DNA from: Pseudogymnoascus verrucosus
Lineage: Eukaryota
Assembly (NCBI GenBank): GCA_001662655.1
Contig: KV460245.1
Reading direction: 5' to 3' (one strand)
DNA length: 64,000 bases
The notes under the pieces were generated by a model, which saw only the letters and a program-made list of their open reading frames with translations, was not told the DNA's origin and ran no database searches. Each line of letters begins with the position of its first letter. Position 1 is the stretch's first letter. Positions 1,735 through 60,703 of this stretch are shown in pieces. Made by a program: the position numbers and the translations under genes.

Positions 1735-4283
1735 GTGAGTGAGGGAGGGAGGGTGAGATGGGGGATGTGAATTGGTGAGGGATATTCAAGGGGGGTTGAG
1801 GGATTTAAGGAGTTGGGTTCGTGTAGGTTGGTTATTGAACCTGAACCTTAACCTGAACTTGAGAAACCTGGAAGGGCGGCTGCTCTGCTCATCGATGGGG
1901 GTCCGAAGTTGGGCCTCTAAACTGGATGATGGGATGGGTAGAGATGGGTGGTTATATAGAATGACACAATATAGATGGATAGATGGATAGATTTTATGAT
2001 TATATGGCCTACACACATACACATACATACATACCTGAACACATAGCATCAGGCCCAAACGTCGCGCTGGCATGGCATAGCTAAGCTACAGATTAATGTG
2101 GTGACACCACGTCCTCTCCCAAGACGGGTGCATAACGGCCCGGCGACGACCACCACCTCGATCGATGAGGTGCAGTGTACGACCGGCGACCGGCTGAGAC
2201 TCCGGCCGGGACCATGGAGTGTGCGGTCTGTACTCCGTAAGCTGTCTATCGATCTGTTTTAGCAAGGAGGGGAGTCGGTGAGGTGAGTATGTATGTGAAT
2301 GTCATCGCGGCGTAAGTGGTAAGTGCTGGGGGAGGCGGGTAGGCGGGAGGGAGGGCCACGTTCTGGGTTGATTGGTGGGGCGGGGGTTAGACGCCGTTTT
2401 ACAGCTTTTGGATTGAGTGAGGTAGGGGGGTACTTGGCTGGAGTAATCTGTGGTTGAATGGTGGTACGGTGTGGTAATTGTTATGCTATGTATGCGCATA
2501 TGTATCTGTATGTCTGAGACAGGGGGGCGGTGATGATTGATGGGCGGTACGGTGATAGATGATACTGTACCCGGTGTATGTAGAGTACGGAGCTGTTTGC
2601 TAGTTGGTAGTTGGATATGTACCCCATATAATTTCTGGAGGCGTTAGGGTAGTAGGGCTGGAGATGGGGGAGGCTGGTGGAGGAGAGAGAACGCCGGGGA
2701 TTGGGGATGGGCAATTGGAGGCACGGATGGGGAGCACGGGTAGGACGGGTATGGTCAATGGGCAATCAATGGTTAATCGGCATGGGAAAGAAGACAGGGA
2801 AGGAGAAAAAAAGCTCTATAGCTAGCAAAGCAAGGCGGTGAACAGGGGGAGGTTGGGAGAAGGGAGGGGGATAGACAGGGAAGAGGGAAGGAGGGAATGG
2901 AGAAATGACGGGCCGGCGGGGGAGGAGGGGTTATCTGGTGAGGAGAGAGAGGGGAAATGGGATGGGAGGTTGGAGAGGGATGGGAGGTCAATTGAAGTGT
3001 GTTTATGGCCCAATTCGGTAATTGTGAAGCTGAAGTTAGTGGATTGTAGTGGTCTTCTTCTACTCTTTCTATACTCACTTCTAGACTCCCTATCTCGATG
3101 TTTATATCGTCCACGTCGCGTCTTCATTCGTCTGTAATTGTCTGGATTTGTATGTACTTATGTCTGTATTACACTGTACACACCGTACCTCTACCCGGGC
3201 CCACGGGAATAGCGAGCCAGCCCACGGGATCACTCGTCCCAGCTTCTTTTAGTAAGAACAACCCACTATCATTCACTGTCAACCACTAACATTCCCCCAA
3301 TCAACCCACCAAACCCACAAACCATCCACTAAACAATCCCCCGTCTAGCACCCCAAGCCACCACCACGAAACTAACACTAACAACAGTACAACCAAGACA
3401 ACCCTCAACCCACCGACAACCACCGAAAAAGCCTCATCTTACCGCATTCCATTCCCCTTCGTCGATCTGCAAAACAACCCACGCAGACACCCAGACACGC
3501 AGAGAGAGCTTACATCGACGAGGGTACCACGGTCTACTCACAACACAACTACCTAGAGGTATACACGCCTTACTCGAGCACAAGCACAAGCACAAGCACA
3601 ACCAACCCACAGACCGCTGCACATCGATCCTATTCACACAGACCAACCTGCAGTGGTGTCTATCCATACATATTTCCCCGTATAACGACTACTGTGAAGA
3701 AGAACAGGGAAGAGCTTTGCGCAGGTACAGTTCTCAGACACGGCAGGGAGACAAGACACAGACGACATAGAGGTACAGAAAACCTACAGACGCACACACA
3801 CACACACTGCAGCACTGCAAGCACTGCATCGGCCTTTCTTCACCTCACCTCACGGAACGATAAAAAGCGCGCATTTCGATTGAATGACGGATTGATTGCT
3901 GCTCGCTCCCACCGCCACTTCCACATCTCACCTCTACCTCAACCACGCTCGTTCGCTCCTTCCCTTTCCCGCCCATAATCGCCTCCTTCCATCGCTGGCC
4001 AGACCACGGGATCCCCAAGAGGACCCAAGAGCGAGAGAGCGTCCAGCACAGCGTGCACGTGTACGGTGTAACCCCAAGAACTGGGCACCCACCACCCACC
4101 CGACAAGCCAGCCAGCCCATACAGCCGATCCACGCCACGAACGTGACCGAGCAGCAGCCCCCCATCGCATCACCCAGTCCCCACGAAACACGCTCCCGGC
4201 CAGACACAGACACAGCACCAACAACAGCGCGCGCAAGCCCGCCGACGAACCAATCCGCCACACGGCCCTTAGATGCGCGCCCC

Positions 4284-7200
4284 ATGGCGAAGCCCCCCTC
4301 GGAGCCCGCCCACGCCCCGGGCGGCGTACAAAATGGCGCCCGGCCCCCCGCCGCCGTCGCGGGGATCTCGTCCCGTGGACTACTCCCTCAGCGCCGCGCC
4401 ACGTCTTCGAGTCTGCTAACGAAATTGCTCGCCCCGACGTACGAGGTTGACGAGTCGACGACGGCGGATGCTGCTGCTGTGAACGCAGACGCCGCGGTAG
4501 GAGACGACGAGCTGCTACGGCAGAGAACACAACGACGGGAGCAATTGCTTCCCCGAGAAACGAAAGATATGGCGGCACAGACTATGCGCCCGCTCTCGCC
4601 GCCGCAACAGACGGCGAGGTATAATTTACATGATATGAATATTAACCACGTCAACGCGCTGCTGCACGACCACCGCGCCTTCCTGCGCTCGACGCGCGTG
4701 CGCGGCAATTCGCTGGAGCGCACTTCGCGCGAGAAGATGGGCGCTACCACGGCGAGCTTTGCGCAGCGAGACGTCAGCGGTGGCACGATGACGAACCCTG
4801 GCGATACGGGGTATACGTATACGCGCCCCGCTACCGACGGCGAGGGGATTGCGCCGGGCGATATCTCGGAGCGCCCGCCGACGGAGGGGTTTAGAGCCGA
4901 ATACCGCAGCTGGAGGGATGGGCAGAGGATGCCTGGCGCGGGGATGGCGTGGAGTATTGGCGATGAGGCGCTCAGTCCGGGAGAGGATGGGCAGGTGGAG
5001 AAGTCGATTACGCAGGCGCTGGCGGGGGAGACGCATAATAGTCGCAGTCGGAAGTCGAGTCATAGTGTGAGATTGTTTAAGGAAGGGTTGCCGGAGGAGT
5101 CGGCGAGGAGGAGTCGGTTGAGGGATGAGAAGGGAGCGGGTGGTGAGGGTGCTGGAGAGGCGCAGATGAAGGGGGAAGATAGGTTGTCTCCTATTGCTGG
5201 GTCGACCGAGCAGACTCCTGCGGAGGATGTGTCGGGGAGCTATTTCGATTTACCGATTGTGGAACCGACGAGCACTGCGCCACCGACCTCGCGGCATCAC
5301 ACCGTCGCAGGGAGGATGAGCAGGGCGAACACAACCGGGAAATCCGACGAGTCACCGCGGCGCCCAGAGCGACAAAACACACTCCCCGCACAACTCCTCG
5401 ACGACCTCCGCAGCCGCCACAATCTCACCCCCGCCGCCACGAAAGGCTCCTCCTTCTCCAACAGCATCCCCATCACCGACTCCGAGCGCCAACCCACCGC
5501 CGACCTGAGCATCAGCGTCCCCTCGGACGACAGCACCGCGCCCGCTACCTCGGGCGACGAGAAGCCGCGCACCGAGTCGCCGAACTCGGACGAGGAGTCG
5601 AGCGAGGAGAAGATTTCGTCCGCGCTGTTCGTGCCGCATCAGAGCTCCCGCGAGCCGGGGGATGAGTCGCCGCAGAATACCCCGCCATGTCGCGAGCCGT
5701 TGAAGGATCGACGCGAGAGGGGAGAGGAGGAGCGCTGGCTGGTGGAACATGAGGTTGCGCCGCATGAGGTGGAGAAGGAGGTGTCGCCGGCGAAGTTGTC
5801 GCCGGAGCTGGTGAGTCCGAGGTCGAGAACGGCGTCGGGGTTCTTTTCGCAGACGTCGGGTAATACTCTTAGTTCTAGCGATGCTAGTTATCCGTCTGCG
5901 AAGGGCGAGGAGCAGGTCCCTGTTACGCAGGAGCAGGGAGAGGATGTCGATGTTACTCCGACCGAGCGAAGGCCGTCGCTGCAGGACTACACTATGAAGA
6001 CGCGCGAGCGCGCACCGACACAGGACTCGGCGCAGCAGCAGCCTAGCCCCAAGGCGGCGGGGCCGCTCGAGGCCATCGAGCTCATCCCATATAAGCACCA
6101 AGTCGGCGGGCACACGACGCTCTGGCGCTTCTCGAAGCGCGCGGTGTGTAAGCAGTTGAATAATCGCGAGAATCAGTTCTACGAGACGGTGGAGCATTAT
6201 CATCCGGCGCTGTTGAAGTTCATGCCGAGGTATGTTTTCTTTTTATTTACTCACCCGCCCGGTCTTCCCCGGTAACCCCCACGCGCTGCTGGCGGCGATG
6301 AAGATGAGCCTTGGAAGACTATATGATCTTGTCCACCGCTTTGTTGTTCGTGTTTGTGTCGTTGGAGAGAGTGTGTGCTGATGGGATTATTTGTATTTTA
6401 GGTACATCGGAGTCTTGAACGTCACCTTCGAAAAACAACTCAAACGCAAACCCACCCTCAAAAACACCGGCGCCGCCGAGCTCATCGCCGCAAAAGCCAC
6501 AGCCGCCCATAACGGCACCTTACCCTCCACCCTCGGCGACACAAACGGCATTCGCCCGCGCGTCATCAGCCAGTCCCTCGCCGCCGGCCCGATCCCGACG
6601 CCTACCGTCACCTTCGCGGATAACCGCCACATCATCCCCAAGAGCTTCATGCAGGGCGGCCCGATCCCGCTCACAGAGACGCCGTATAAATCCCTCTCCG
6701 ACTCCAACATCCACGTCTCGCCCGACCACAAGACCGGTCGCAGCACGTCAGAGCCGGTTAATGGCGAGGAGAGACCGACGCTCTCGGATCGTCATGCCGT
6801 CAGCTGGGGCGCGACGACGGTGAATCGCAAACTCCGCTATGAGGTCTTCGGGGAGGCGTTCCTGAGGCAGCCGGTGCAGGTGCAGCCGCATAAGAAGCCA
6901 GGACAGCATCATCTACGAAGGGATCTGGCGCATAGAGCTGTGCCGCCGGTGCTGAGGGCTACGACGTCGGATTCGAATCTGAATCTCGGCGGGAGAGAGG
7001 AGGAGGATGTGTCGCTGAGGATGCAGGCTATTAAGGCGGCGGCGCTGAGGAGGGGGGTGGATGGGGGGGGGAGTCCGACGAAGGTGGGGAGGGGTGTTTC
7101 TATTCCTGTTGCTACTGGGGGGGCACATGCTGAGGCTGCTACGGAGGCGAAGAAGGGGGAGAATGGCGTGTTGAGCGATGAGGAGGAGTTCGCGGAGCAG

Positions 7201-15740: not shown

Positions 15741-16082
15741 CAGATGACAATACGGGGTGGCCTATCGCCGTGTACCAGCCTTGCAACATGCTACACACGC
15801 GCTTAGAGACTTATCATAGGAAGGCTAACTTACCTAACAAAAGAGAGGAGGCGCCAACGTGAAAACGATGGATACTATTGCTCTATAGCATGCTATCTAA
15901 ACCTACCCAATACAGTGTTGGATGACGGGTGCATACAGGCGGGAGTGATCAGTGCAGTGATACGGGAGGTACTATCTGAATCCATGCAGACGCATTAAAG
16001 GCAGATATCTTTCACTGATACTAGGCAAGCAACAGGTCGACGCCATGGATGCTCGTGTGGCTATTCACGCAACAAAAAAATT

Positions 16083-16145
16083 ACATGCAACAGTAGGTAT
16101 TCGCTGGTGGTCACCCACCCAACTACTAATCTACCGATTTCAAGC
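16083..16145 (-). rRNA. 5S rRNA: 5S rRNA gene 1, 3' part (nt 57-119), interrupted by element 1
   Basis: Reverse complement reads GCTTGAAATCGGTAGATTAGTAGTTGGGTGGGTGACCACCAGCGAATACCTACTGTTGCATGT, the typical ascomycete 5S 3' half. It is followed by AA and a T7 Pol III terminator (16074-16080). Confidence 0.92.
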
Positions 16146-16286
16146 AAACACCTGGATATTACTTAAATCGGTGCCATCTGGCCTAGCGGGTGAGCCTCGC
16201 CGCCCTTACCCTTGTTTCGACCACCTCGACCATCCAAAAGTGGGTCCATTTTTGACGACGTGTTGCACTGCGACATTAGATGCACA

Positions 16287-16398
16287 CAGGTGAGCTGGGT
16301 GGGTAGGTGAGCATGGTGAGCAAGGTAAGCAGGGTGAGCAGGGTGAGCAAGGTGAGTAGGGTGAGCTAGATGGGTGAGGAAGGTGAGTATGGCTGAGC
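16287..16398 (+). repeat. Left subterminal array of degenerate 9-bp CAGGGTGAG repeats (element 1)
   Basis: caggtgagctgggtgggtaggtgagcatggtgagcaaggtaagcagggtgagcagggtgagcaaggtgagtagggtgagc... Confidence 0.85.
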
Positions 16399-16835
16399 TA
16401 GGGACATGGTATAAAGGGCTAGTCTCCCGCCTTCACATTTCAAGGTCCTCTTTCTACAACTTTGTATTTTTTTCAATATCTACTACAATAGGACGGAAAG
16501 CCCTTCCTCCTAAAGATCGGCTTGCTCTGGCACAGAAGCGAGGCTATTCTGCGTAGTTTTGTGGAGGCGTTTGGTATGGACCGTGCACATTGCGTCTCGT
16601 ATATGAGGCTGAGTTGACTCCTCTCGTTCAAAATCCTAGCATTAAGCTAGGCGTCCAATCGTCATTCAAATTTTCGATCCCAAATGGTATCTGGCACTTC
16701 CTCAAGATCGGTATAGCCGGTTACAGTGTCTCCCCCCTTGAAGTCTACAGCTAAACCACACGCTACGCTTCTGACGCACACCATCCTTCGTAACAGGCAT
16801 CATCTTTAACGTTTATATCACGCTCCCCGTGATAA

Positions 16836-18759
16836 TTAAATGCTAACCTTAATAACATCGGCAATCTTCTCTGCAATCGCATAAATCGTACTCGTCAAAT
16901 GCCCACTGACCTGGGTCGGGATAACACTTGCGTCAACAACCCTTACGTTCTGCGTCCCGTAAACCCTCAGCTCACTATCCACAACTCCGCCAAGCTCTCT
17001 TGACATCATAGCTGCCGTTCCTAGTGGGTGTGAATTCCCAGCAACTTGGTGAATGTCAGTAAGAAAAACGTCCCAAGAGAGGTAGGACACTAACAAGTGG
17101 TCTTCACCCAATTCGCCCATTGCTCATAAGAAGCATCTTTAGGCAATGCATCAAATCCAGGAGACGTCTCAGTTGCGAGACCTTGGATAGGAGGCGTTTC
17201 CCAGAATTTCCTTGTCCATTTCGCAATCGCTACTTGGACGTCGACGTCAAAGTCAACGAGGAAATAGTTTGGGTTTATGACCGGATATGCCAAAGGATCC
17301 GAGGAGCTAATATGCACGTTGCCTCTGGAAAAGGGCAGTAAAAGCCAAAATGCTGAAGCTACCAAACCGCTTGGACCTAAGCCAATACTGAAGGTTGTCT
17401 CGAGGATTGATTCTGCATCCACAACGCCGTTGTTAATTAATTCATATTGTATGCGGAAAAGTTGTTCCAACGATGATACGCTAATAGCATGATCGATTGC
17501 GACTGCAACTTTCTCAGCCCAAGCCGTTAAGTTGACATTTTTAGGCAGCGAGTCCAAAAAATCAGAAGCTGAACCGAAAGCTACGTATGGAATAGATCCA
17601 CTAAACGTTGTATTAGAAGACATGATAATCTGGCTGTTCGGTTGGTCTTGTAAATTTTCGCCGACGGCGGGGAGGTTGACCTTGACAGGAATTCCGGATT
17701 TATTTAGGATGCTTCTCACGTCAGTAAACTTGGTGTGTTTTTGAGGAGGCTTAACTACCTGGGATTTCCTATTCCTGAGAGCTCGAGAATGGCAGGAGAT
17801 CTTAATGAGCCGGCTGAGAGAATGACTTCACGTTTGGCATCAAGGGTAGTAACTGTGCCATCCGCAGCTGTTATTTCCACACCACCTGCAACAGCGCATT
17901 CGCTCGTGGACTCTCGCCAGGTAATCCTATTTGCAACTGTGTTTAGGAACACGTGAAGATTGGGCCTGCTTTGAACTGGGTAGTAATACGCTCTACCAGC
18001 ATCTTCTCGCAGGTTAGCATCCCGATTCATGGTACTCTGCCAAACAGTAAAGCCTCGAACATTGCCACCATTAACATCAAGACTCGTAGGAATGCCCAAA
18101 TTGTTCCATGCCTGTTCTACCACTTCGTGGTATGTGCCATTCAGCAGTCCAAAGCCATATCCTACATTTAGTGGACCTTTTTTGCCATGTTGTTGTGAAA
18201 CGTATGTTGCACCTGCTTCGACTTGAGCAGATGTGGGAGAATCGAACTGCTCGCTTTTTAGGTAATACGGGAACAGGTCGTCCCAACTCCATCCACTATT
18301 TCCAAGTTTTTCCCAAGCATCTATCTGAGCTTTCTCTGCGCGCACATATGTCATGCCTAGATTTGTTAGCGATCAACATTAGGGATGCTAAGATCATACC
18401 ATACCATTGATTGTGCTCGTTCCACCAAGAGCTTTGCCAGAGTGATATGCGATTTTTTGGTCTCCTGCATGAGTTTGATTGACAGATTCATATTGCCAGT
18501 CGATCGCGGTACCAAGGGCGAGCGTGAAGGAGTTTGGGTCCGTCACATTCGGATTGTTAATGACTTCACCGCCTGCTTCAATTACTGCGACAGTAACATG
18601 CGGAAACTCAGTAAGTCTATTGGCCAGAGTCAGGCCTGCTGTTCCACCGCCAACAATAATAAAATCAAACTCGGGTTCCAATGCGGCACAATGGGAAACT
18701 AGCAAAGCTGGTGCGACAAGGACAAATGCCCAAGTTCGAAAGTGAGTTGGAGCAATCAT
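16836..18759 (-). CDS. Secreted GMC oxidoreductase (glucose oxidase/dehydrogenase-like, AA3), 4 exons; cargo of element 1
   Basis: Signal-peptide-like N-terminus, [15 protein letters not shown] motif, [47 protein letters not shown] and catalytic HPLGTAAM and [13 protein letters not shown]. Three GT-AG introns all splice in frame. Confidence 0.92.
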
Positions 18760-18866
18760 AATAGAAAGGTTTAAAGTTGACAGTAGCGAGGTGGGCTACG
18801 GGAATTTCTTAAGATTATTATGGGGCAGTGCATGGGTTTTATAGTTCTTGACGATGACGAAACTAT

Positions 18867-18963
18867 TAATTCGGCCCTATCCTTTCTTTCAGGGAGTTGA
18901 AAGATAATTCGGCCCTATCCCTATCCCTGAAAGAAGGGATAGGGCCGAATTATCTTTCAACTC
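18867..18963. repeat. Nested inverted repeat: perfect 29-bp hairpin plus an overlapping 28/29 inverted copy
   Basis: 18894-18922 is the exact reverse complement of 18935-18963 (12-nt loop). 18867-18895 pairs 28/29 with 18924-18952. Confidence 0.9.
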
Positions 18964-19016
18964 AGTAATAAATGGGGTAACTTTTGAGACTAGTGTGCAT
19001 TTCGTAGGATTTTAGT

Positions 19017-19051
19017 GCCCTGCTCACCCTGCTCACCCCTCGCCTCACCCT
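19017..19051 (-). repeat. Right subterminal CTCACCCTG array (element 1), inverted relative to the left array
   Basis: gccctgctcaccctgctcacccctcgcctcaccct. Confidence 0.8.
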
Positions 19052-19122
19052 TCAGGCGGCAAGGGGCCGTGATTCCGCGCCATGCCTATTGGCACGATTG
19101 AGACCATTAGTCTGATGTTACG

Positions 19123-19183
19123 CAAGCTTGTGTATGGCAGAGCGGACGGGATGCCCAATTCTCTTGAGTCTATGGTCGTATGT
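19123..19183 (-). rRNA. 5S rRNA: 5S rRNA gene 1, 5' part (nt 1-61)
   Basis: Reverse complement reads ACATACGACCATAGACTCAAGAGAATTGGGCATCCCGTCCGCTCTGCCATACACAAGCTTG, with the canonical fungal 5S start and the CATCCCGTCCGCTC loop. Confidence 0.92.
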
Positions 19184-29535: not shown

Positions 29536-29598
29536 ACATACAACAGTGGGTATTCGCTGGTGGTCACCCACCCAACTACTAATCCACCGATCTCAAGC
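29536..29598 (-). rRNA. 5S rRNA: 5S rRNA gene 2, 3' part (nt 57-119), interrupted by element 2
   Basis: Reverse complement reads GCTTGAGATCGGTGGATTAGTAGTTGGGTGGGTGACCACCAGCGAATACCCACTGTTGTATGT, followed by a T-run terminator. Confidence 0.92.
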
Positions 29599-29757
29599 AA
29601 TCCTCTAGATAATAGTTAAACCGGTGCCATCCAGCCTAGTAGTTGAGCCTCGCTGCCCTTACCCTTTTTTTGTGATCGCGACTACCTCAACCACCTCGAC
29701 CACCCAGAAGTGGGTCTAGTTTTGACAACGCGTTGCACTGCGACAGTGGACGCCTTT

Positions 29758-29838
29758 AGGTGAGCAGGGTGAGTGGGCGAGCGTGCTGGGTATGGTGAAC
29801 AGGGTGAGCAGGGTGAGCAGGGTGAGCAGGGTGAGCAG
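29758..29838 (+). repeat. Left subterminal CAGGGTGAG array (element 2)
   Basis: Four perfect tandem CAGGGTGAG copies (29800-29835) plus degenerate copies upstream. Confidence 0.88.
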
Positions 29839-31417
29839 AGGGTCACATGTGAGACGGGAAACTCGTTCTTCATCCGCTGCAGCACCACTATATTGCAGAT
29901 TTGATTTGGGCTTCGTTCACAAGAGGATACAATTAAGAGGCCTGTGCGCTAGTAAGGTAGCCACAGCTTATACGGAGCTTATGTTCATAGGTTTTGTGAG
30001 TGGGGGGAGATATTAAAGCCTCGCGCACGGCTCCGCGGAAATCGATGATGTATCTCGCCTTATATTTTGTACGTGATCGATACATGAGTATATGCTGCTG
30101 TGCACAAATCCTGGGTCCCTTGTTCGATCCACTCGCAAAACTTTTGAACATTACCCCTGTACTGACTCGTGTGAAGGGTCAATACTTGTGAACTACTGGC
30201 CCTGCTCAGCCACCACTCCTTTAAGAAAATATCAAATTCTGGTGCTGTGTGTTGTGTGCCGCGATGTTCGGCCGGCACCTGTTTCATTGGTCGGATACTT
30301 ATAGGGAGGTTATGTACATAAGTTTTGTAAGTGGAGCCTGTGTGTTGATGCCACTAAGACGGAATCTGCGGGGTATGCTTAAAATGGAAATTGTAACACC
30401 CTCAATCGCAGGGAACCCCAGCTTTAGTTGGTTGGTTGGGGTTGGTTAGGGGTTGTTGGATCTGGCTCCGAAAGACTGGTGGTTGGTAACCTCTCGATTT
30501 TGGAGTATGAGCTCACGCCTACCCCATAAAGAGCCTTAAGGAGAATTGGGGCATTATTACGAGTGGGTCTTTACGTTCGTAATTAGCTTAATTGATCTAC
30601 GTGGCTTACGCTATTGAGTGTTACGCTACCATTCTAAGCGTACCCCGCAGATTCCATCTGTGTGGTATCAACACACAGACTCCACACTTTGTCCTAGGCC
30701 ACCTGTGGATAGAGATGCTGTAAAGAATCACACGCCAAAGGCTCAATCAATGTTGGCTTTTGCAAGGGTAGAGTGGCTGATTTTAGGAAGTGAATGTCTA
30801 TACGGAGATATATACACGCCATACCATGGTGGACTTGATAGAAGACTAGTTGGTTGGAAGTATGAAGAGATCAAATGAGACGGGATGAGATTTGGAGAGG
30901 GGATAGATAGTTGGTTGAGGGCGCTATTTTTGTGGGCGCGGATGGTGGAAGGGGATCCACTCCATGTGCATGTATGGGATGGAAGTTGCGCGGTATAGCC
31001 CTCAGCTACTATCCCCTGAGTGATTATCGCGACACGCTCTGTTAACAAAAGGCAACTGCGAGTTAGATCTTCGTATTTACGCCTTTGTACCAGGTTACTT
31101 TCTGGCAAGTTCCGGCATTGACAAGGCGCTATCAGGGGAGCTGTTAGGGTGCCATCATTTTGACATTCGCCAAAAGCCCGTATGTGACATCGATCCGCCT
31201 CGGAAGTGGTTTATATAGTCTGGGGTTCCATTATTGCTCCAGAACTGGTGCGAATTACCTTCTCCATCTCAGACTACATACAGCCACATCACCGCATCAA
31301 AACAATTGTTTTGAGGTGGCGATGTCTGTGCTGTTGAGTAATATATATGTATTCTTCGGTTGCAGTGCCTAAGGTCTATATATCCATGATATTGAAACCA
31401 ATTGCATGAGATGAGCA

Positions 31418-32903
31418 ATGCAGGTCCTTACAGAGGAGCAAACGAGAGCGCTAGCGGCCGAAACTAGAGGTCCCATTCTCCTCGGTCTTTCGATATCCTT
31501 TACCGTTTTATCTTCCATCTTTGTGGTATTACGAGTCATCGCAAGGTTCTGGATTATTAAGGGTGCAGGATGGGAGGATTATACTATAGTGGTGGCTGTG
31601 GTACGTAAGAGGACGCGAATTGTTATCGAAAGACACAGTCTAATATACTACGTCTTTAGGCCTTCAACGTAGGAATGGCAGCGTGTCAGATTCAAGGTGA
31701 GCCTTTCCTTTAGCTTCCTGATCTCCACGACACCCAATTGCTAATTCCTCCTCAGAGGTGAGATATGGCACTGGCCGGCACGTACAGTTTCTTGAAACGT
31801 CACAAGTCGTTGGCATTCTCAAGGTCAGTTCCATTGCTCTCTCCAGAAAATCCATTGATCTCACGCTTATAGTATCTCTTCTGGAGCATTATCTCTTACT
31901 GTGTCACCCTTAGCCTCGTTAAAACGAGTATTCTCCTCCAATACTACCGCATCTTCGGGGGGAACGATGCAACGAGATATGCAATCTACGTGGCCCTCAT
32001 CATTGTCATCGCATTCGGAACGGAGTGCGTAATCAGTGATATCTGGACCTGTGTACCAGTTCAAGCCTTCTGGGAACTCAGTCTCCGGCCGACCTCTAAA
32101 TGTGTGGATCAGAACAAGTATGTATTCATGCACGCGGCTAGGGCGACGATTCGAACTTCATACTAACTTTGAGCAAGGCTCTTTCTGGCCAATGCCTGCA
32201 TAAACATCGCTACCGACCTGATAATTGCCACGATTCCTCTGCCCATCGTCCATAAACTCCGCATCCCCTTCCGACAAAAAATTGCATTGATGGTCATCCT
32301 CGGCATCGGTTGGTTGTACGGAGCCCCTTCTCCCCCTTCCCGCAATACCACAAAGCTCACATCACCCCACATAGCATATGCGCCGTTTCCATGCTCCGGC
32401 TCAACTCCATCATCGGCCTCGCTAAGCAAGCCGACACTACCTTCTACAGCGGTGAAACAGCTTACTGGTCCACTATCGAAGTCAACGTCGCGATCATCTG
32501 TGCCTGTCTCCCGACGTTAAATCCTATCTGTAGGCTGATCTTCCCACGCTACTTCAGATCGACCCAAAGCGCGAAGTATGACTCGAACAGTGAGCGCATG
32601 TTAGGCAACAACGCGTTCGTTCAGCTCGCTGGGGGCGCCTCTGCGTCGAAATCGAGGCAGGTGGGCAAGAGGAGCTGCAATGGGGACGAGGACGGGCTGC
32701 GAGCGGCCGAGAGGTACCAAGCGGGGGTGGCGGCGAATCTAAATGGAGACGACGGGAGGGCAGAGGATGGGAACGAGCAGGCGATTCGGGTGGAGAGTAG
32801 CGTGCAGCAGACCGTCTACATCGAAGACGATGAGAGCGGGCAGAGTTATACGAGTGCGAGCGTGAGCCAGAGGGACTTGATCCCTATGGTTCCTGGGCGC
32901 TAG
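31418..32903 (+). CDS. PTH11-like (fungal rhodopsin-domain) 7-TM integral membrane protein, 6 exons; cargo of element 2
   Basis: Spliced motifs VVLRVIARF..GWEDYTI, YGTGRH, KTSILLQYYRIF, CVPVQAFW..C, NIATDLIIATIPLP..KL..PFRQK, ICAVSMLRL and WSTIEVNVAIICACLPTL. Five GT-AG introns splice in frame. Confidence 0.9.
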
Positions 32904-33090
32904 TGGAAATGGAGCTTCTCCTTTGACGATTTAGACTTCATTCGTGAGTATGGCTCACAAATGACAAATAAGCTATAAAATAAGAGCAAGGCACCCTTAA
33001 TATGGTATGTAAGTTAAGATAGCCAAACTTCAGTGCTGATACGAGAATGATGCGGAAGTGACGCCAAACTAACACAAAGATGTTGCTTTG

Positions 33091-33158
33091 CCTCACTCAC
33101 CCCACTCACCCCGCTCACCCTGCTCACCCCTACCCTCACTCAACCCTCGTCTCACCCT
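33091..33158 (-). repeat. Right subterminal CTCACCC array (element 2)
   Basis: cctcactcaccccactcaccccgctcaccctgctcacccctaccctcactcaaccctcgtctcaccct. Confidence 0.82.
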
Positions 33159-33229
33159 TCAGGTGGCAAGTGGCCCCGATTCGGCGCTATGCCTATTGGC
33201 ACAATTGAGACTATTAGCCAGAGGATACG

Positions 33230-33290
33230 CAAGCTTGTGTATGGCAGAGCGGACGGGATGCCCAATTCTCTCGAGTCTGTGGTCGTATAT
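33230..33290 (-). rRNA. 5S rRNA: 5S rRNA gene 2, 5' part (nt 1-61)
   Basis: Reverse complement reads ATATACGACCACAGACTCGAGAGAATTGGGCATCCCGTCCGCTCTGCCATACACAAGCTTG. Confidence 0.92.
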
Positions 33291-37283: not shown

Positions 37284-38113
37284 TACTGACACTGGCGCTG
37301 CCGCTGGCCGCAAAACTAAACCCACCACAGTAAGTATTTTTTCCTTTGCCAAGGACAGACAGAAGACAGAACCTCATCTCGCAGTTAATCGCACGTGTGT
37401 GTTATGGAGTAACTATAAGCTGTCATGCATGCACTATGTAAGTGCCCAGTAAGCTGACGGTGTGTACGAAGAAGGCTGCGATCGACACCTCAGTAATTCC
37501 TGTCAGCTTCTATAGAATAACCTTACTGTACTTCATACAGACGATTTGTAGACTAAGGCTAGTTTTGCTCTCTAATGCATGCAAGTGAGAGTAGTTAAGG
37601 GGTGAGGTCCCTCGATGAAAGGTGATGAGATAAATGAACTCCCAGACATCGTGAAAAGTCAATCATATAAGGTTTGGACACGCATATTAATTAATGTAGA
37701 GCAGAGCTTTCTCTTCTAACTGCCGAGTAACAGGGGCTGGAAGACCACGTGATGTTTGCTTCTTGGATATTGGAACCATGCAGCAGTGGTGGTCTGTGGT
37801 GTACTCCTTGCAGGATGTACTCTGACAGAAACGGAACCTTGCATCGGGAGGTCACCTGACTTGGCGTAAAGTGACACGCGCTCGGAAGCACGTTGTCGCG
37901 ACGACATGATTTCTCCACTTCCACGCACCAAGTTTGCTTCCAGGCACAAACGGCAACACCAACCGCGTCGTTTCGTTTCGACTGGATCAAATATGCCATG
38001 GACAGCAAATAAACAATAACTCTCGCCAGCCATCAAATTCAAGTCGGCTGGGCTCCAAGCACGATTTCTCGGGCGTTTCCATTCCCCGAGACAAAGGCCC
38101 GAAGGCTCATGAA

Positions 38114-41100
38114 ATGGCAGCCCTGGAGAGAGCCCGTCTGCGGATGGCAAAACTCGGCGACGAAATAGCGCTCTGCTTTGACGATGAGGTCATCTGCGAA
38201 GGATCAGATGCAGAGGACAGTCTCCTGTCAAAGGCGGAGCGACAGAGACGGCGCGAGGCTATCGAAAAACGATACATTGCTGGACATGCTCCCCTGATAA
38301 TGTCAGCACAGCTTAGAGGACCATTCGACAAGAATAGCGGATGGGTAAACCCGTGGCAATCGAAACGGCCGACCCAAAAGCAGCCAACGAACAGAACGAC
38401 AGTTACGGAACACCCGAATCTCGCTCATAAAACCACTTCAGTCGTCGGTTTGGGAAAGCGCCGCAGGGATGACAGCAACTCATCCAGCTCCGTTGGTACG
38501 CGAACCAAAGCATTGGCCGAATGTTCCAGTACATCAATGGATATAGTCAATAATCGCCAGCCAGAGCGGCCCCAACTACATTCTGGATTCAAGCGGTTTG
38601 TCGCGAATCAGCTTGAGAGGCCCTCGGATTTTGCGAGCCTGGACGAGCGGGAAAATATATTACAAAAGCCAGGCGTTGGCATAAAGAGGAGGGCTGATAC
38701 AAACTGGTTAAAAGGGGCAGATGTTGGGAAACGCTCTCGCAACAACTGGTCAGATCCCACGTCGCCAACGCCGAAGGAGAGGACCCGAGATATCGTCGGC
38801 AATGACAAAGCTATAATAGATGCGTCTAGTATGTCTATGTCTAATGTGAGCATTGCGAAATTTAATCGACAACTACCTGCTGAAACGGCGAGCCTGTCTG
38901 AATTTGAAGATATCCCGGTTTCGACAGCAGACTCTGTACGCTCCACACGCACCACGGTCCAGAGGCGCGGCGATGGCAATATCCAGCCTACTCCCAATGT
39001 CACTGCCAAAAAAGCCGAAGATACGCGGCGTGAAATATCGGTGCGACCAGAGTCTGCGTCTAGAGTGTATGAGGAGTCGGCATCTAGTGCGGGAAGTGTG
39101 GATGGAGATGGGTTAGATTCGGCTATGGAAATTGGCCGCACAGCCCCTGAGTATTCTTTGAATGGAAGTTCATTCGTGGAGCCCGAGTCATCCTTTGGAC
39201 ACAAATCAGTACATCGATGTGATTCGGTGCTATCATTTGAGCCGTCGCCCGTTCATACTATTGCGCGAAGCCAACTAAGCCAGGAAATACTCCACGGCCT
39301 CTCACAGGCTTCTCAGCTAGCTTGTTCAGCTGAGCAACTGACACCCCGAAAGCCGGATGTCTCTGCATTGAATATTGCCGAAAGTCATCGCTCAGACCTA
39401 GCAAAGCGGAATGGTCTATCACCATCAAGTAAGAAGACGCCTTCGCAACTTGTCTCAGCGTCGTTAAACCATACATCACAAGCAAGAAGTCAATCGCATC
39501 CCCTCCAAAAAAGCCCAGTGGGGGTTAATCTGCTCAAACCTAAAAGAAATGACCGATCACGAAGCTTCGATTCTCCGTTGCCACCAGGCAGTTTGAAGTA
39601 TCGCAGAGTCAGGCGCAATGCACCAACCACGGCCGAGGGCAGTCAGAATGGTGATTCACGTAAGGCTATTGAGAAGCAGAAGACACCTGAGGCGGCTCCT
39701 CTTCAGTCAACAGAGGTTCAAGATGATGCACACAAAAAAGATGTGGTGTCTCCCGCTAGCCAAGCCCTGAATTATGTCGATCTAGCCAGGGATCGGTTTT
39801 CAACCTTTAATTCCGGGCGGCTGCTGCAGCCGCCTGGCTCCGTGCCAATTATTGAGATAACCGACAACGACGCAGATGAGGATTCAGAAACGAAACCATT
39901 GGATAGAGATATTGACGATCGGGCGCCCACACATGCCTCTGTTCCTCCAATATCGCCAGTTACGAAGGATGGGCGCAATGAATTGGAAGCCGCGCACGAG
40001 AGCTGTCCTACGCCAATAATTGATGGTCGTGGAAGCGAAAGCAGTCTTGATACAACTGTTATGCCTTGTCAAGAAAACGGAGAAAGTGAGGGCCTCTTAG
40101 CCAGCGAACAGGCTCTTGGGACACAACCGCCTCCCATCGAAATTGCAGCGGAGACAAACAGCGGAAATGTCGAACACAAAGAAGAACTCCCTTCTTCTAA
40201 GGCCACAACTAGCGTCACGAAAGAAGCGACCATTGGAGATGTTACATTATCACAGGACACAGGCTCTCTACTAGCATCTCCTGACCTGACAGACAATGAG
40301 TCCACGCTCGTAGAAATATTACAACATGTTTCTCAAGGGCCCATTCCGAAATCCTCGCCATTGCCTCCATTGCCTGACATTGTCGACGACGAGCAATTTT
40401 CAGACACAAGCTTTATATCTGCCACTGAAGAGTCTATTCCGAAATCCCAACCCGCGCCTGCTGATGTTGGAGACGACCAAGTTTTAGAGGCAAGCTTCAC
40501 GTCTGCTCCAGAGGAGGTCCACTCCCTTCCTGTACTGCAAAGTCCCTGGGCAGTTGAGGATGTGCCTGTACCACAATCCCTTTGGATCGAGCCTACCGTA
40601 CGTACCGGGAATTTCTCAATGAGCCAAAGTAAAGATGCCGCTCTGCTGCTCGCGGGAACTGAGCCACATTGCTCTGGCGCCGGTTCACCCGTGCACAATG
40701 GCGAATCATCAGTCCGCAATTCCGAACCGCCCCAGACCAACGAACTCGTTTTCAGCGGCGTTGTATCTTCGTGGTTGATACCCACAGGTTCCCCTCCGCC
40801 ATCCCCAAAATATCTCTCACCGCGCAAGTCTCACACTCCGCAATCGCCCACGGTCGGAAACGACGACCTCCTCCCCCTATCCAACCCCTGGGCGAACAAC
40901 ACACAGAGTCCAATAATACATCCACGCCCTATCAAACGAAAGAAGCGTGTTTCTTTCAATCCTCCGCCACTCGACAGTGACAGCGAAGACAAACAGCCCG
41001 ACCAGCCAAACAACAAAACACCCCAGTCAAGGGACCTCTCCAGTCCGCCTCCACCACCCGAAGCTGAGTCTCTTACAAAGGGGAATAATTCATGTCACCG

Positions 41101-41614
41101 GAAGCTCAAGTGGACGAGTGGGATATTATCTAGGCGCGCATCGAATGACCAGCTTAGCGTGCCCAGAGAGGATACTGTCCCGGGCAGCCCAGGCGTCGGT
41201 GCAATGGCCGAAGCATTTTTGGCTGCTGATGCGAGGGCTCAATCTGCGGATAGCAATTCCGGAGAAGTGCGTGACAAGGATGCATTTACCGGGCCAGAGA
41301 ATTTTGACATAGTCGAGGATGGAGAACAGCAGGGTAAAGTCAGCGCAGCTTCCGCTGTGCGAGCTGTACCACTTATGACGGAGAGCCAGCTGGTCAACCC
41401 CTGGGGCGATGAGGGTGAGGCTCCCTTGTTTTGTATGGCGGACTGTAAGCCTGAGGAGGACGACGGGTTGGTAGAGGATGTACTAAGTGATATGGATGCG
41501 ATGCTGGGTGACTGGAATGTAGACGCTGAGTTGGATCGTGCAAAGAGGGAAGGAAAGGGGCAGTTGGAGAGAGATGAGACTGCCAGGGAGAGGCTGGTAG
41601 AGGCGGGCTATTAA
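38114..41614 (+). CDS. Large, mostly disordered hypothetical protein
   Basis: Open frame of more than 1100 codons. N-terminal block RRRREAIEKRYIAGHAPLIMSAQLRGPFDKNSGWVNPW and C-terminal LGDWNVDAEL resemble a Pezizomycotina hypothetical family often labelled protamine P1-like. Start set at the first in-frame ATG. Confidence 0.75.
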   Translation: MAALERARLRMAKLGDEIALCFDDEVICEGSDAEDSLLSKAERQRRREAIEKRYIAGHAPLIMSAQLRGPFDKNSGWVNPWQSKRPTQKQPTNRTTVTEHPNLAHKTTSVVGLGKRRRDDSNSSSSVGTRTKALAECSSTSMDIVNNRQPERPQLHSGFKRFVANQLERPSDFASLDERENILQKPGVGIKRRADTNWLKGADVGKRSRNNWSDPTSPTPKERTRDIVGNDKAIIDASSMSMSNVSIAKFNRQLPAETASLSEFEDIPVSTADSVRSTRTTVQRRGDGNIQPTPNVTAKKAEDTRREISVRPESASRVYEESASSAGSVDGDGLDSAMEIGRTAPEYSLNGSSFVEPESSFGHKSVHRCDSVLSFEPSPVHTIARSQLSQEILHGLSQASQLACSAEQLTPRKPDVSALNIAESHRSDLAKRNGLSPSSKKTPSQLVSASLNHTSQARSQSHPLQKSPVGVNLLKPKRNDRSRSFDSPLPPGSLKYRRVRRNAPTTAEGSQNGDSRKAIEKQKTPEAAPLQSTEVQDDAHKKDVVSPASQALNYVDLARDRFSTFNSGRLLQPPGSVPIIEITDNDADEDSETKPLDRDIDDRAPTHASVPPISPVTKDGRNELEAAHESCPTPIIDGRGSESSLDTTVMPCQENGESEGLLASEQALGTQPPPIEIAAETNSGNVEHKEELPSSKATTSVTKEATIGDVTLSQDTGSLLASPDLTDNESTLVEILQHVSQGPIPKSSPLPPLPDIVDDEQFSDTSFISATEESIPKSQPAPADVGDDQVLEASFTSAPEEVHSLPVLQSPWAVEDVPVPQSLWIEPTVRTGNFSMSQSKDAALLLAGTEPHCSGAGSPVHNGESSVRNSEPPQTNELVFSGVVSSWLIPTGSPPPSPKYLSPRKSHTPQSPTVGNDDLLPLSNPWANNTQSPIIHPRPIKRKKRVSFNPPPLDSDSEDKQPDQPNNKTPQSRDLSSPPPPPEAESLTKGNNSCHRKLKWTSGILSRRASNDQLSVPREDTVPGSPGVGAMAEAFLAADARAQSADSNSGEVRDKDAFTGPENFDIVEDGEQQGKVSAASAVRAVPLMTESQLVNPWGDEGEAPLFCMADCKPEEDDGLVEDVLSDMDAMLGDWNVDAELDRAKREGKGQLERDETARERLVEAGY

Positions 41615-41979
41615 TGTATAATTGGAAGGCTGGGGTCTTGATGCTGAGCTATTGGAAAGCTCAGGTGTCATGGTACAAATAGAGATGAGTGGTTTTAATT
41701 GCTGGGGCTGGTTTCTTTACTGTCGCTGGCTAGCTGCCTTGTATAGAATATCAAACGCTTGAACCACCTCCCATTTATTTTATGACCATGAATACGAATC
41801 ACTGTATAATCCACAAGGAGTTCAGCGTCATGCTTCAGAAACGAATACAGCTTAGTTTCTCAAGCCCTATAGACAACCTCTTCGCCCGGAGCATACATGA
41901 GTACCACGACTATCGCATTCCCTCCACCAAACACCAAACGCCCATTGTTAAACCCTAATAACAGCCTTTTATCTCCGAC

Positions 41980-43015
41980 TTATTCAGCAACAACCTTTCT
42001 TTTTGACTTCTTAGCCTCAACCTCATCCTTCATCTCGATATCCTCAGCATCAACGATCAACGAGTCCCTAGTCCTCTTCAATCCCTTCATCTTCCTCGTC
42101 TGCAACTCCCCGAGATCCTGCTTGCCGAGATGTATCCTTCCGACCTTGTCACCCACAATATCAGTCGAGATGTTCTTCTTCGGCCTCTCCAGCGTCGTCC
42201 TCGCCTTCCTCATCGCCTCCTTGAGCATCGCCTCCTCAGCATCCTTCATTCTCCCAATACGGAAGTCCATGCGAGGTCCCATCTCCTCAACCTCCACGCG
42301 AGGCAGCTTTTGTCCGCTCTTCTTGGTCTTGATCAGGTACACCCTAAGATGGATTTTAGGCTTCGCCTCCTCCCCATCGACAGTGTCGCGTGCCGCGATA
42401 GACACCAGGTACTGCAACCCCTCCACATCAACCTTCTCAGCCGGCTCGCCCTTGAAGAAATCCGTGAAGAAGCTCTTCGCCATCGTGTACTCGTTCGGGA
42501 TTGGGCTCTCAAACGGCGTACCGCTGAACAAAAGCATGGGCTTAAGTCCCACAGCGCACTTCTTGTTCTTGAACTGGCTGAGCAGGCGCAAGCTATCCGG
42601 ATCGAGGTTGAGCTCTAGCATATCCAGGACCTTGTATCCGAAGGTACGCACGAGCGTCAGCGCATGCGGGCGCTTCTTGCTGGAAGAGCCGAAGACGAGC
42701 AGCGAGGCGTCGTTCTTCTCGCTGAAGAACTCGAGGGAGGCGGCATCCTCGAAGGGGTGGATCTCGTTCTTCTTGGTGAACTTCTGGGCTAGGGGTCGGC
42801 GCAGCGAGTACAGGTCTGTGAGCGCATCTTGGGTCTTCTGCGAGCACGAGGTGCCGCGGAGGAAGAGCGCCTTCTTGGGGTTCTCGACGGGCTTGGGGGC
42901 CTTCTTGTCGAGGGCGCGCTTGGAGCGGGCGTTACGGGGTTTTCTGGCAGTGGGTTAGTTTTTAATTGTCTTGTGGGGGAAATTTGCGATTGGAAACGTA
43001 CATTTGGCGGAGCAT
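41980..43015 (-). CDS. RPF2: Brix-domain ribosome biogenesis protein; one 5' intron
   Basis: MLRQI/KPRNARSKRAL, KKNEIHPFED, RTFGYKVLDMLEL, LPRVEVEEMGPRMDF and GRIHLGKQDLGELQTRKMKGLK. Confidence 0.93.
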
Positions 43016-54472: not shown

Positions 54473-54590
54473 GATGTTGCTGTCACGGAGCTGTTGCTGT
54501 CACGGAGCTGTTGCTGTCACGACGCTGCTGCTGTCAGGAAGCTGCTGCTGTCACGAAGCTGCTGCTGCCGCGAAGCTGCTGCTGTCGAAT
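54473..54590. repeat. 17-bp minisatellite, about 7 copies (GCTGTTGCTGTCACGGA)
   Basis: gctgttgctgtcacgga x2, then progressively diverged copies. Confidence 0.85.
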
Positions 54591-60103: not shown

Positions 60104-60537
60104 TGGGAGGTGGTAGTGGTCTGGGAGACCGATGTGAGGTGTATGAGGTTTTGGAGGTAGGACAGTGTCCTGGGTTAATGCGTCGAAGTTTATATCGCAG
60201 AGCTTCGATGCGGATGTCGTTGTTGGGCGTTTGATATGTTGGTGGTTGGTGGTTGCGTCGTTTCCCACGGTGACTGTGTGCGTGATCTGCTCTGACGAGT
60301 GCGGCCGCCGGCCCGATCCACCAAGGCTACGGTAGCCTACGCCACTACATACAAGGGTGCTTTATCATGATAAGAGCTCAGAGATACGAATCCAATTAAG
60401 CAAAACAGTAGATTAGCTCAAAGGGTATATGTGCACTATTATCGGGTTTCATTATGGATGAGCAAGCCAAATATTATTATGCCACAGCTACTCTTCAGTC
60501 GCCTTTCTTCGCGGCGCTCTTCTCAGTCAAACAGCGA

Positions 60538-60703
60538 GCGGAACCCAGACTCCAGGCGCTCATCCTCGAAATGCCCCTTCTAATCATCTAGTGAGCGGCA
60601 CCCAGACTTCAGGCCCTCATTCTCCCAATGCCCCTCCCAGCCTCCAGCCAGCGGCGCCTAGACTCCAGACGCTCATCCTCCCAACGCCCCTCTCAATCAC
60701 CTA
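60538..60703. repeat. About 57-bp tandem repeat, 3 diverged copies, immediately downstream of the VPS11 stop
   Basis: gcggaacccagactccaggcgctcatcctc / gcggcacccagacttcaggccctcattctc / gcggcgcctagactccagacgctcatcctc. Confidence 0.75.

Follow-up and report, generated by a model that had tools for sequence, protein, structure and literature searches.

Inward-reading 9-bp subterminal arrays at both ends of two cargo-carrying insertions in 5S rRNA genes of Pseudogymnoascus verrucosus

Introduction

Starships insert repeatedly into 5S rDNA: 23% of 222 curated sites lie there, at no fewer than five distinct positions and in a strand-specific manner (PMC11162782). The Starships that target 5S genes are flanked by direct repeats of 6-16 bp, occasionally possess terminal inverted repeats (TIRs), carry a captain tyrosine recombinase at their 5' end and transport cargo (PMC11162782). 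Voyager inserts 20 bp from the 5' start of the 5S gene (PMC9156397), and the Osiris elements of Aspergillus fumigatus split 5S genes (PMC12153272). A captain can also act in trans on a captain-defective derivative. This derivative, mini-Hephaestus (Urquhart et al. 2023), is the sole mini element to have been tested, and at its ends it retained 3.8 kb and 1.9 kb of sequence (PMC10104507). In the excerpts of this literature used here, the roles of Starship direct and inverted repeats are stated as 'presumed'.

The subterminal repeats of classical cut-and-paste transposons and the arm-type sites of phage integrases are short binding motifs, several of them within about 100-250 bp of each end and in opposite orientation at the two ends. 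Their number varies, and they do not coincide with the site of cleavage or crossover. Dada elements, DDE transposons that insert into small RNA genes including the 5S genes of fish, produce duplications of 6-7 bp, have no TIRs and possess short subterminal inverted repeats, according to excerpts of their descriptions (PMC3706591, PMC8869645).

Here we analyse a 64-kb stretch of fungal chromosome, hereafter the window (Pseudogymnoascus verrucosus contig KV460245.1, assembly GCA_001662655.1), in which two insertions, E1 and E2, interrupt 5S rRNA genes and carry arrays of a 9-bp motif near both of their ends. Motif counts are limited to this window.

Results

Two insertions split 5S rRNA genes at the same nucleotide

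The large ORFs of the window include housekeeping Pfam families (inositol polyphosphate kinase, ERCC4, MMS19, tubulin, VPS11 and an LRR protein), and none of the 20 large ORFs scanned with Pfam matched a recombinase or transposase family. The gene content, with a fungal-rhodopsin domain and intron-rich genes, would point to a filamentous ascomycete. Three long open frames on the plus strand have no Pfam match at E values up to 0.001 (3888-6275, 795 aa; 37910-41614, 1234 aa; 41873-42958, 361 aa). Two tandem repeats, at 54478-54586 (17-bp unit, 6.4 copies, 90% matches) and 60533-60703 (56-bp unit, 3 copies), are unconnected with the arrays described below.

Both insertions split minus-strand 5S rRNA genes at the same nucleotide, at 5S positions 57-61, inside the palindrome CAAGCTTG, and a 5-bp direct repeat, CAAGC, flanks both element bodies. 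The bodies and their flanks are as follows, where L103, L109 and L003 are metagenome loci introduced below.

16083-16145, minus strand: E1, 3' part of the 5S gene, 5S positions ~57-119 (Rfam, 25 bits; aligns with the same part in E2, L103 and L109)
16141-16145 and 19123-19127: E1, left and right copies of CAAGC, read from the sequence
16146-19122: E1 body, 2977 bp
19123-19183, minus strand: E1, 5' part of the 5S gene (5S positions 1-61), in which the right CAAGC lies (aligned to the intact 5S gene of L003)
29536-29598, minus strand: E2, 3' part of the 5S gene, with CAAGC at 29594-29598 (alignment)
29599-33229: E2 body, 3631 bp
33230-33290, minus strand: E2, 5' part of the 5S gene, with CAAGC at 33230-33234 (alignment)

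Removal of one CAAGC copy leaves a 5S gene of normal length (119 nt), and the insertion is therefore placed at positions 57-61. The 5S parts needed short-region scans, the whole-window Rfam scan having returned no match at E values up to 0.1. Scanned in this way, the left flank of E1 matched 5S_rRNA (25 bits, E 0.0032, 16082-16179, minus strand). The right-hand 5S half of E1 alone gave no Rfam match even as a short region; this flank lines up, column by column, with the opening 60 nt of the intact 5S gene of L003, a gene that scores 85.3 bits. The paired 5S parts of E1 and E2 differ at 7/124 positions, and outside them the two loci are unrelated in sequence.

Sub-threshold 5S alignments that include the element tip were seen in the window (16082-16179, minus strand) and in L109 (33-118, minus strand); in both the tip replaces the missing 5' strand, probably through an artefact of the model. 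We considered the left TIR of the element as a substitute 5S 5' strand and rejected it as an artefact of the global model, since these alignments score 25 and 23 bits against a cut-off of 38 and contain several non-pairs in the closing helix.

Four arrays of a 9-bp unit lie inside the element ends

Both ends of E1 and E2 carry an array of the unit GGGTGAGCA, with the core GGTGAG and a period of 9 bp. Tandem Repeats Finder (TRF) returned the consensus GGTGAGCAG with period 9 at all four array sites; its right-hand matches are on the complement.

16288-16398, plus strand: E1 left subterminal array, ~12 units of GGGTGAGCA, inward-reading (TRF 16289-16366, 8.8 copies)
19017-19051, minus strand: E1 right subterminal array, 3 units, inward-reading (TRF 19018-19038, 2.3 copies)
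29758-29838, plus strand: E2 left subterminal array of 8-9 units, perfect in the inner four (TRF 29759-29838, 9.0 copies)
33091-33158, minus strand: E2 right subterminal array, ~6 units (TRF 33094-33130, 4.1 copies)
16188-16196, plus strand: solitary GGTGAG unit in the E1 left arm, kept in 3/4 left arms and reading GTTGAG in E2

When up to one mismatch is allowed in the core, the arrays contain 12 (E1) and 8 (E2) units on the left, and 3 (E1) and 6 (E2) on the right. They lie 142-252 bp (E1) and 159-239 bp (E2) from the left ends, and 71-105 bp (E1) and 71-138 bp (E2) from the right ends. The first-pass annotation, made from the sequence alone, had described arrays at these distances and in inverted orientation at both ends, and TRF, the motif counts and the element boundaries bear this out for all four.

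The window contains 80 copies of GGTGAG where 36.7 (sd 5.9) would be expected, and 0/100 shuffles reached a count of 80. Of these occurrences 23 fall inside the four arrays: 9 (E1) and 6 (E2) on the plus strand in the left arrays, and 3 (E1) and 5 (E2) on the minus strand in the right arrays. The exact 9-mer CAGGGTGAG is found nine times in the 64 kb, strand-specifically and always inside an array; with one mismatch allowed, 15 of its 37 window matches are inside arrays. The annotation had named arrays that are common away from element ends as an observation contrary to its reading, and in the window the nine exact 9-mers give no sign of this. Each arm sequence of the element ends has only two occurrences in the window.

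Related ends in metagenome contigs carry arrays in the same position

We scanned metagenome contigs with a degenerate three-unit array pattern, which matched at least 119 stretches, and took flanking DNA for 80 of those listed. The parts of the ends that exclude the array (5S part and arm) were then compared by blastn with the 119 loci listed. Five of these matched. Four are ends of the same family, two of them left ends (L103 and L109) and two right ends (L118 and L059); for the fifth, L003, the match is confined to an intact 5S gene. L103, L109 and L118 have a common contig-name prefix and L059 a different one; the 3.8-kb flank of L059 shows no similarity to the window, and it is therefore a different locus. 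The interior of the L059 element contains no ORF longer than 93 aa.

Across window and metagenome, all four left ends adjoin the 3' part and all four right ends the 5' part of a 5S gene, at the same nucleotide and with inward arrays, so that the insertion position (5S 57-61) is fixed in six copies. The metagenome arrays, which border the arm on its inner side and read inward, comprise 3, 5, 8 or 7 units. Arrays are thus present at 8/8 ends examined, four in the window and four in metagenome contigs that were found with the array as bait. Since array-less members could not appear in such a search, the universality of the array is that of a biased sample. Within this sample, the lack of arrays in other family members, the second contrary observation named by the annotation, is not seen, and the variation in copy number that it described extends over all eight ends (3-12 units).

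The arms of the family ends diverge by 11-30%. With all eight arrays aligned to the tandem consensus without anchoring on the core, GGTGAG is conserved at 95-100% and the other three positions at 82-87%. The arrays might, instead of serving the mobilising enzyme, work by way of DNA structure, with a G-quadruplex on the inward strand, or of transcription, with the array as an upstream activating or insulating sequence for the adjoining gene. GGG runs are spaced 6 nt apart; 4/8 arrays contain a canonical quadruplex motif (loops up to 7), 6/8 contain one if loops are relaxed to 12, and the left arrays of E1 and L103 lie ~10-25 nt upstream of a TATA box. However, neither the largest array (E1 left) nor that of L103 contains a quadruplex motif even with relaxed loops, and the first G of the triplet is among the least conserved positions (84%, against 95-100% for GGTGAG). 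Moreover, no TATA box follows the array in E2 or L109, and the right array of E2 lies downstream of its cargo gene. We therefore consider an action through structure or transcription very improbable. A quadruplex as a universal array property was rejected, as two of the eight arrays lack the motif even with relaxed loops.

Loci with exact 24-mer matches to the array were mostly outside the family (15/19) and in unrelated contexts, which counts against the explanation that we favour below. A separate repeat family, here group B, was observed at L035 (3860-4400), L074 (3700-4210), L094, L104, L023 (2640-2900) and L003 (3600-3774). Its members carry the same 9-mer in arrays of 4-11 units, ~100 nt inside a conserved terminus; after the array come ~250 nt of common sequence and then differing interiors. 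The contigs look fungal, and HET, fungal AAA lid, histidine phosphatase and MFS genes lie close to the repeats. Group B does not lie in 5S genes; in L003 it is found ~175 bp downstream of the intact 5S gene. Its arms show no blastn similarity to the window family at E values up to 1e-3, and a MAFFT alignment brings out no more than the array and one short motif resembling CCGCTTTGA as common to the two.

Element ends combine imperfect TIRs with a conserved TGCCA box

Both elements possess imperfect TIRs of 30-40 bp.

16147-16188, plus strand: E1 left TIR, in which the conserved TGCCA box lies (aligned locally to 19078-19119 in reverse complement)
19078-19119, minus strand: E1 right TIR (local alignment)
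29600-29629, plus strand: E2 left TIR, 30 nt, 73% complementary to 33197-33226
33197-33226, minus strand: E2 right TIR, 30 nt

The TIR score of E1 was reached by 27/2000 shuffles and that of E2 by 2/2000. Between L109 and L118 the TIR is better preserved than in E1 and E2, with a perfect 16-nt core and ~38 nt overall (0/2000 shuffles). Given the weak TIR of E1 and the 7/124 differences between the 5S parts, E1 and E2 are probably old and may be immobile. A TGCCA box is present ~25-35 nt from the tip in 8/8 ends, whilst the outermost 4-8 nt are poorly conserved and the two ends are offset by ~4 nt. Mimicry of the adjoining 5S sequence by the TIR, in the manner of attP and attB, was also examined and rejected, its score being reached by 633, 1409 and 1932 of 2000 shuffles.

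TIRs, subterminal repeats in inverted orientation and a short duplication make up the classic anatomy of class II transposons. All three are present here, which would fit mobilisation by a DDE transposase, either a fungal relative of Dada or a member of an unclassified superfamily, with the arrays as transposase-binding subterminal repeats. Dada is specific for tRNA, snRNA and 5S genes, and excerpts of its descriptions report related sequences in fungi (PMC3706591, PMC8869645). Nevertheless, Dada makes 6-7 bp duplications and lacks TIRs, whereas the present family has a 5-bp repeat and TIRs; poorly conserved outermost nucleotides and an end offset of ~4 nt are unusual for DDE termini; and the carriage of whole genes is typical of Starships. 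On balance we judge a DDE enzyme to be somewhat unlikely.

The array is the inner limit of the common end sequence and a possible recombination junction

The first-pass annotation had stated that homology between the elements stops right after the arrays. This holds for the pair E1 and E2, which are homologous over the 5S part, the arm and the array and no further, but not for their relatives, in which it continues past the array on both sides. E1 and L103 have ~150-190 bp in common beyond the left array; E2, L118 and L059 have ~40-75 nt in common beyond the right array, and L118 and L059 align for more than 300 nt further. The E2 segment concerned is the following.

33053-33090, minus strand: E2 stretch just inside the right array, homologous to L118 and L059 (alignment)

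What comes after the left array is of three kinds, one in E1 and L103, another in E2 and a third in L109, which makes the array the inner limit of the part common to all ends. As far as these alignments go, it is such a limit and yet not a universal edge of homology.

In L109 (300-624) the last array unit is joined directly to a 5'-truncated gene, and GTGGGG is common to unit and gene. The ORF after the array is 52-71% identical over 97 aa to four fungal proteins of 350-439 aa, one of which its source lists as hypothetical and as belonging to a Pseudogymnoascus species. The match starts at residue 176-266 of the homologues (~201 in one), exactly at the last array unit, and the fragment corresponds to the C-terminal 40-50% of a conserved fungal coiled-coil protein; Pfam returned nothing above cut-off for the four homologues. 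A public gene call, P0005 (299 aa), spans the 5S part, the arm and the array and runs into this gene fragment, and we treat the call as an artefact for that reason. The fusion is either a captured fragment or a deletion breakpoint, and is a single case. It points to the array as a recombination junction, which it may be besides, or instead of, a binding platform.

We therefore weighed the possibility that the arrays are unstable minisatellites, grown from one ancestral GGTGAG site in a long degenerate inverted end and devoid of any multi-copy function, which form a recombination-prone junction for the loss, swap or capture of interiors and would thereby account for the end of homology at this point. 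A copy number ranging from 3 to 12, perfect inner units beside decayed outer ones (as expected from slippage) and the L109 fusion through GTGGGG microhomology all favour such a slippage-driven origin, and the three unrelated sequences after the left array and the solitary conserved unit in the left arm are consistent with it. Against it, arm divergence of 11-30% has left the arrays in place at 8/8 ends, conservation is higher in the core than in the spacer, one orientation rule applies at both ends, and fusion is seen at one junction only (L109). The conservation of core over spacer, the fixed inward orientation and the persistence despite arm divergence favour sequence-specific recognition instead. 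We regard minisatellites without function as unlikely. A role as binding sites and a role as minisatellite or seam are nonetheless compatible and not exclusive.

Each element carries a single host-type gene

E1 and E2 each contain one host-type gene, the two cargoes differ, and there is no further sizeable coding content.

16836-18759, minus strand: E1 cargo, GMC oxidoreductase gene, secreted-type, apparently intact, in four exon-like ORF pieces
31418-32903, plus strand: E2 cargo, gene for a fungal-rhodopsin-domain membrane protein, multi-intron, apparently intact (Pfam Fung_rhodopsin 9.3e-14, exon-like ORFs)
16410-16556, plus strand: TATA box (16410-16416) and decayed inward gene start (16488-16556), common to E1 and L103

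The ORF pieces of the E1 cargo run from a signal-like N-terminal start to a C-terminal stop (Pfam GMC_oxred_N 2.4e-22, GMC_oxred_C 5.5e-10). No DUF3435-type captain and no other recombinase or transposase gene was found among the ORFs of E1 and E2; with a single cargo gene and no such enzyme, both are therefore non-autonomous cargo-carrying insertions.

The decayed gene start of E1 has ATA in place of ATG and 22 codons followed by a stop. L103 (331-624) is 71% identical to E1 16406-16556, and its gene start is stop-interrupted as well. A word-index search of longer proteins gave no homologue of the E1/L103 gene start; an exhaustive HMMER search with its 30-aa translation gave three matches, all translated tandem-repeat artefacts, and the 56-aa translation of L103 had no protein homologue.

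Further inverted repeats were noted in the interiors. Within E2, 5' of the cargo, lies a 355-bp unit with 57-nt inverted arms (30331-30387/30629-30685, 88% complementary), and related inverted repeats at 29971-30003/30129-30161 and 30128-30155/30308-30335; these look like small nested insertions of MITE type. Within E1, at 18867-18963, the stretch that separates the right array from the start of the cargo contains a 29-nt inverted repeat with perfect arms and a 12-nt loop, which overlaps a second 29-nt pair (97%), forming a compact palindromic element.

E1 and E2 themselves could be in-situ deletion remnants of large autonomous elements, for example giant Starships, that never moved as 3-kb units and would be uninformative about the minimal cis unit. 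In line with this, E1 retains the promoter and first 22 codons of the inward gene it has in common with L103 and then breaks off, neither element is repeated in the window, and the 5S parts and the TIR of E1 are decayed. Degraded Starships have also been reported in 5S rDNA hotspots, according to an excerpt of that study (PMC12153272). Yet there would be two independent remnants here, much alike in size, and in either of them a single gene is intact and the end modules are complete on both sides; breakpoints lie near arrays on 3/4 sides; and no remnant of a typical Starship gene was seen in the ORFs of E1 or E2. Deletion in situ appears to us rather less than likely, though to be taken seriously.

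Discussion

A compact end module with an array at its inner edge

Taken together, the ends of this family form a module made up of an imperfect 30-40 bp TIR with its TGCCA box, an arm (~140-200 bp in left ends, ~70-90 bp in right ends) and, innermost, 3-12 units of GGGTGAGCA in an array with the G-rich strand reading inward. The arrays are conserved subterminal modules and most likely multi-copy protein-binding sites. We tentatively favour, at a little short of an even chance, the explanation that E1 and E2 are non-autonomous members of a site- and orientation-specific, cargo-carrying family of DNA elements of filamentous fungi that inserts at 5S positions 57-61 and is mobilised in trans, with the arrays as accessory binding sites.

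Under this proposal, a recombinase or transposase supplied in trans would recognise the TIR and the TGCCA box, the leading candidate being a Starship-type tyrosine recombinase, and strand exchange would take place at the CAAGC core. The arrays would be accessory sites of arm type, tolerant of copy number, that could load several protomers or a DNA-binding partner and help to pair the ends. They may at the same time be the meeting place of conserved end and variable cargo, apparently prone to illegitimate joining and so a possible seam for cargo turnover. With arrays of anywhere from 3 to 12 units, and just three of them at the E1 right end, many copies are not required; this counts against the proposal, and so does the 9-bp period, which is not a helical repeat.

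The first-pass annotation had read the arrays as iterated binding sites, arm-type or iteron-like, that define the minimal cis unit. Iterated binding sites are consistent with arrays that are conserved, fixed in orientation, present at 8/8 ends, absent elsewhere in the window and better conserved in core than in spacer, whereas the fusion of the L109 array to a truncated gene speaks against this role alone. The iteron-like reading finds no support, with nothing suggestive of replication. As for the minimal cis unit, the arrays do qualify as conserved components of the ends; they are not its strict bounds, as relatives share sequence beyond them.

What appears to be new is a family of compact 5S-specific elements that lack a captain, carry a single gene and have 9-bp arrays in subterminal position, the described Starship 5S boundary repeats having been compared in part. 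An array 15-mer, in either orientation, had no occurrence in the literature searched. A more far-reaching interpretation, which we consider doubtful, is that E1 and E2 are natural miniature cargo cassettes of a 5S-rDNA-specific recombinase system, perhaps the first captain-less mini-Starships or a new superfamily. In that case the cis requirement would be satisfied by ~250 bp of left end and 140 bp of right end, the inward GGTGAGCA arrays would serve both as a loading platform from which a trans-acting enzyme could pair the ends and as a seam for splicing in host genes, and the system would be a eukaryotic analogue of gene cassettes with a safe-harbour target.

End modules that are compact and can be aligned (TIR and box, arm, array) offer a concrete and testable definition of what the enzyme might need, and the gene start kept in E1 and L103 provides a handle for finding it. 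In E1 and E2, each copy places a single intact gene in a multicopy safe-harbour gene. If the arrays mediate cargo capture, they bear on how eukaryotic mobile elements acquire host genes; if the elements are dead deletion remnants, this is an ordinary decayed transposon with a minisatellite.

Comparison with known systems

The likeness to 5S-targeting Starships (Voyager, and Osiris and other members of the families Enterprise, Arwing and Voyager), as described in excerpts of the literature, is close in several respects. E1 and E2 are fungal, lie inside the 5S coding sequence, fragment the gene and are strand-specific. Their family likewise has a short direct repeat matching the target core, TIRs and variable host-type cargo, and an inward gene at the 5' end, which in E1 and L103 is a decayed remnant at the position of the Starship captain. 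In contrast, E1 and E2 measure 3.0-3.6 kb rather than 15-700 kb, carry one cargo gene rather than many and have no captain. The direct repeat is 5 bp rather than 6-16 bp long, and the 5S position is 57-61 rather than 20 bp from the start as reported for Voyager in the excerpt used. CAAGC, sought among Starship boundary repeats in one sheet of the PMC11162782 supplement, appeared there only in nine unrelated TIR rows, and the literature searched, as far as its excerpts extend, held nothing relevant on subterminal 9-bp arrays in Starships. Target, orientation, direct repeat, cargo and remnant-gene position thus fit, whereas size, captain and repeat length do not, which makes the family Starship-like in behaviour and not a demonstrated member.

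Natural non-autonomous or miniature Starships were represented in the literature searched only by the engineered mini-Hephaestus and by unrelated uses of these terms. Mini-Hephaestus, as described in part of its report, is a small Starship derivative with a defective recombinase gene that is complemented in trans, so that mobilisation of a captain-less form is possible in principle. E1 and E2 differ in being natural and in having a 5S target, whereas mini-Hephaestus is artificial, with 3.8-kb and 1.9-kb ends and the target TTAC(N7)A.

With Dada, including Dada-5S of fish, the family has in common insertion at a fixed position in a multicopy small RNA gene. Compared by description only, and from excerpts, it is unlike Dada in its 5-bp rather than 6-7 bp repeat, in its TIRs of 30-40 bp where Dada has none and in its carriage of whole host genes, which is not described for Dada. 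The subterminal and arm-type sites of classical transposons and phage integrases are dispersed, are not 5S-specific and have had their binding shown experimentally, whereas the motifs of the present family stand in head-to-tail 9-bp arrays for which we infer binding. The overall layout is nonetheless a familiar one, with a short repeated motif near both ends, inverted between them and conserved across members at 8/8 ends of this array-baited sample, as in non-autonomous TIR elements with subterminal repeats.
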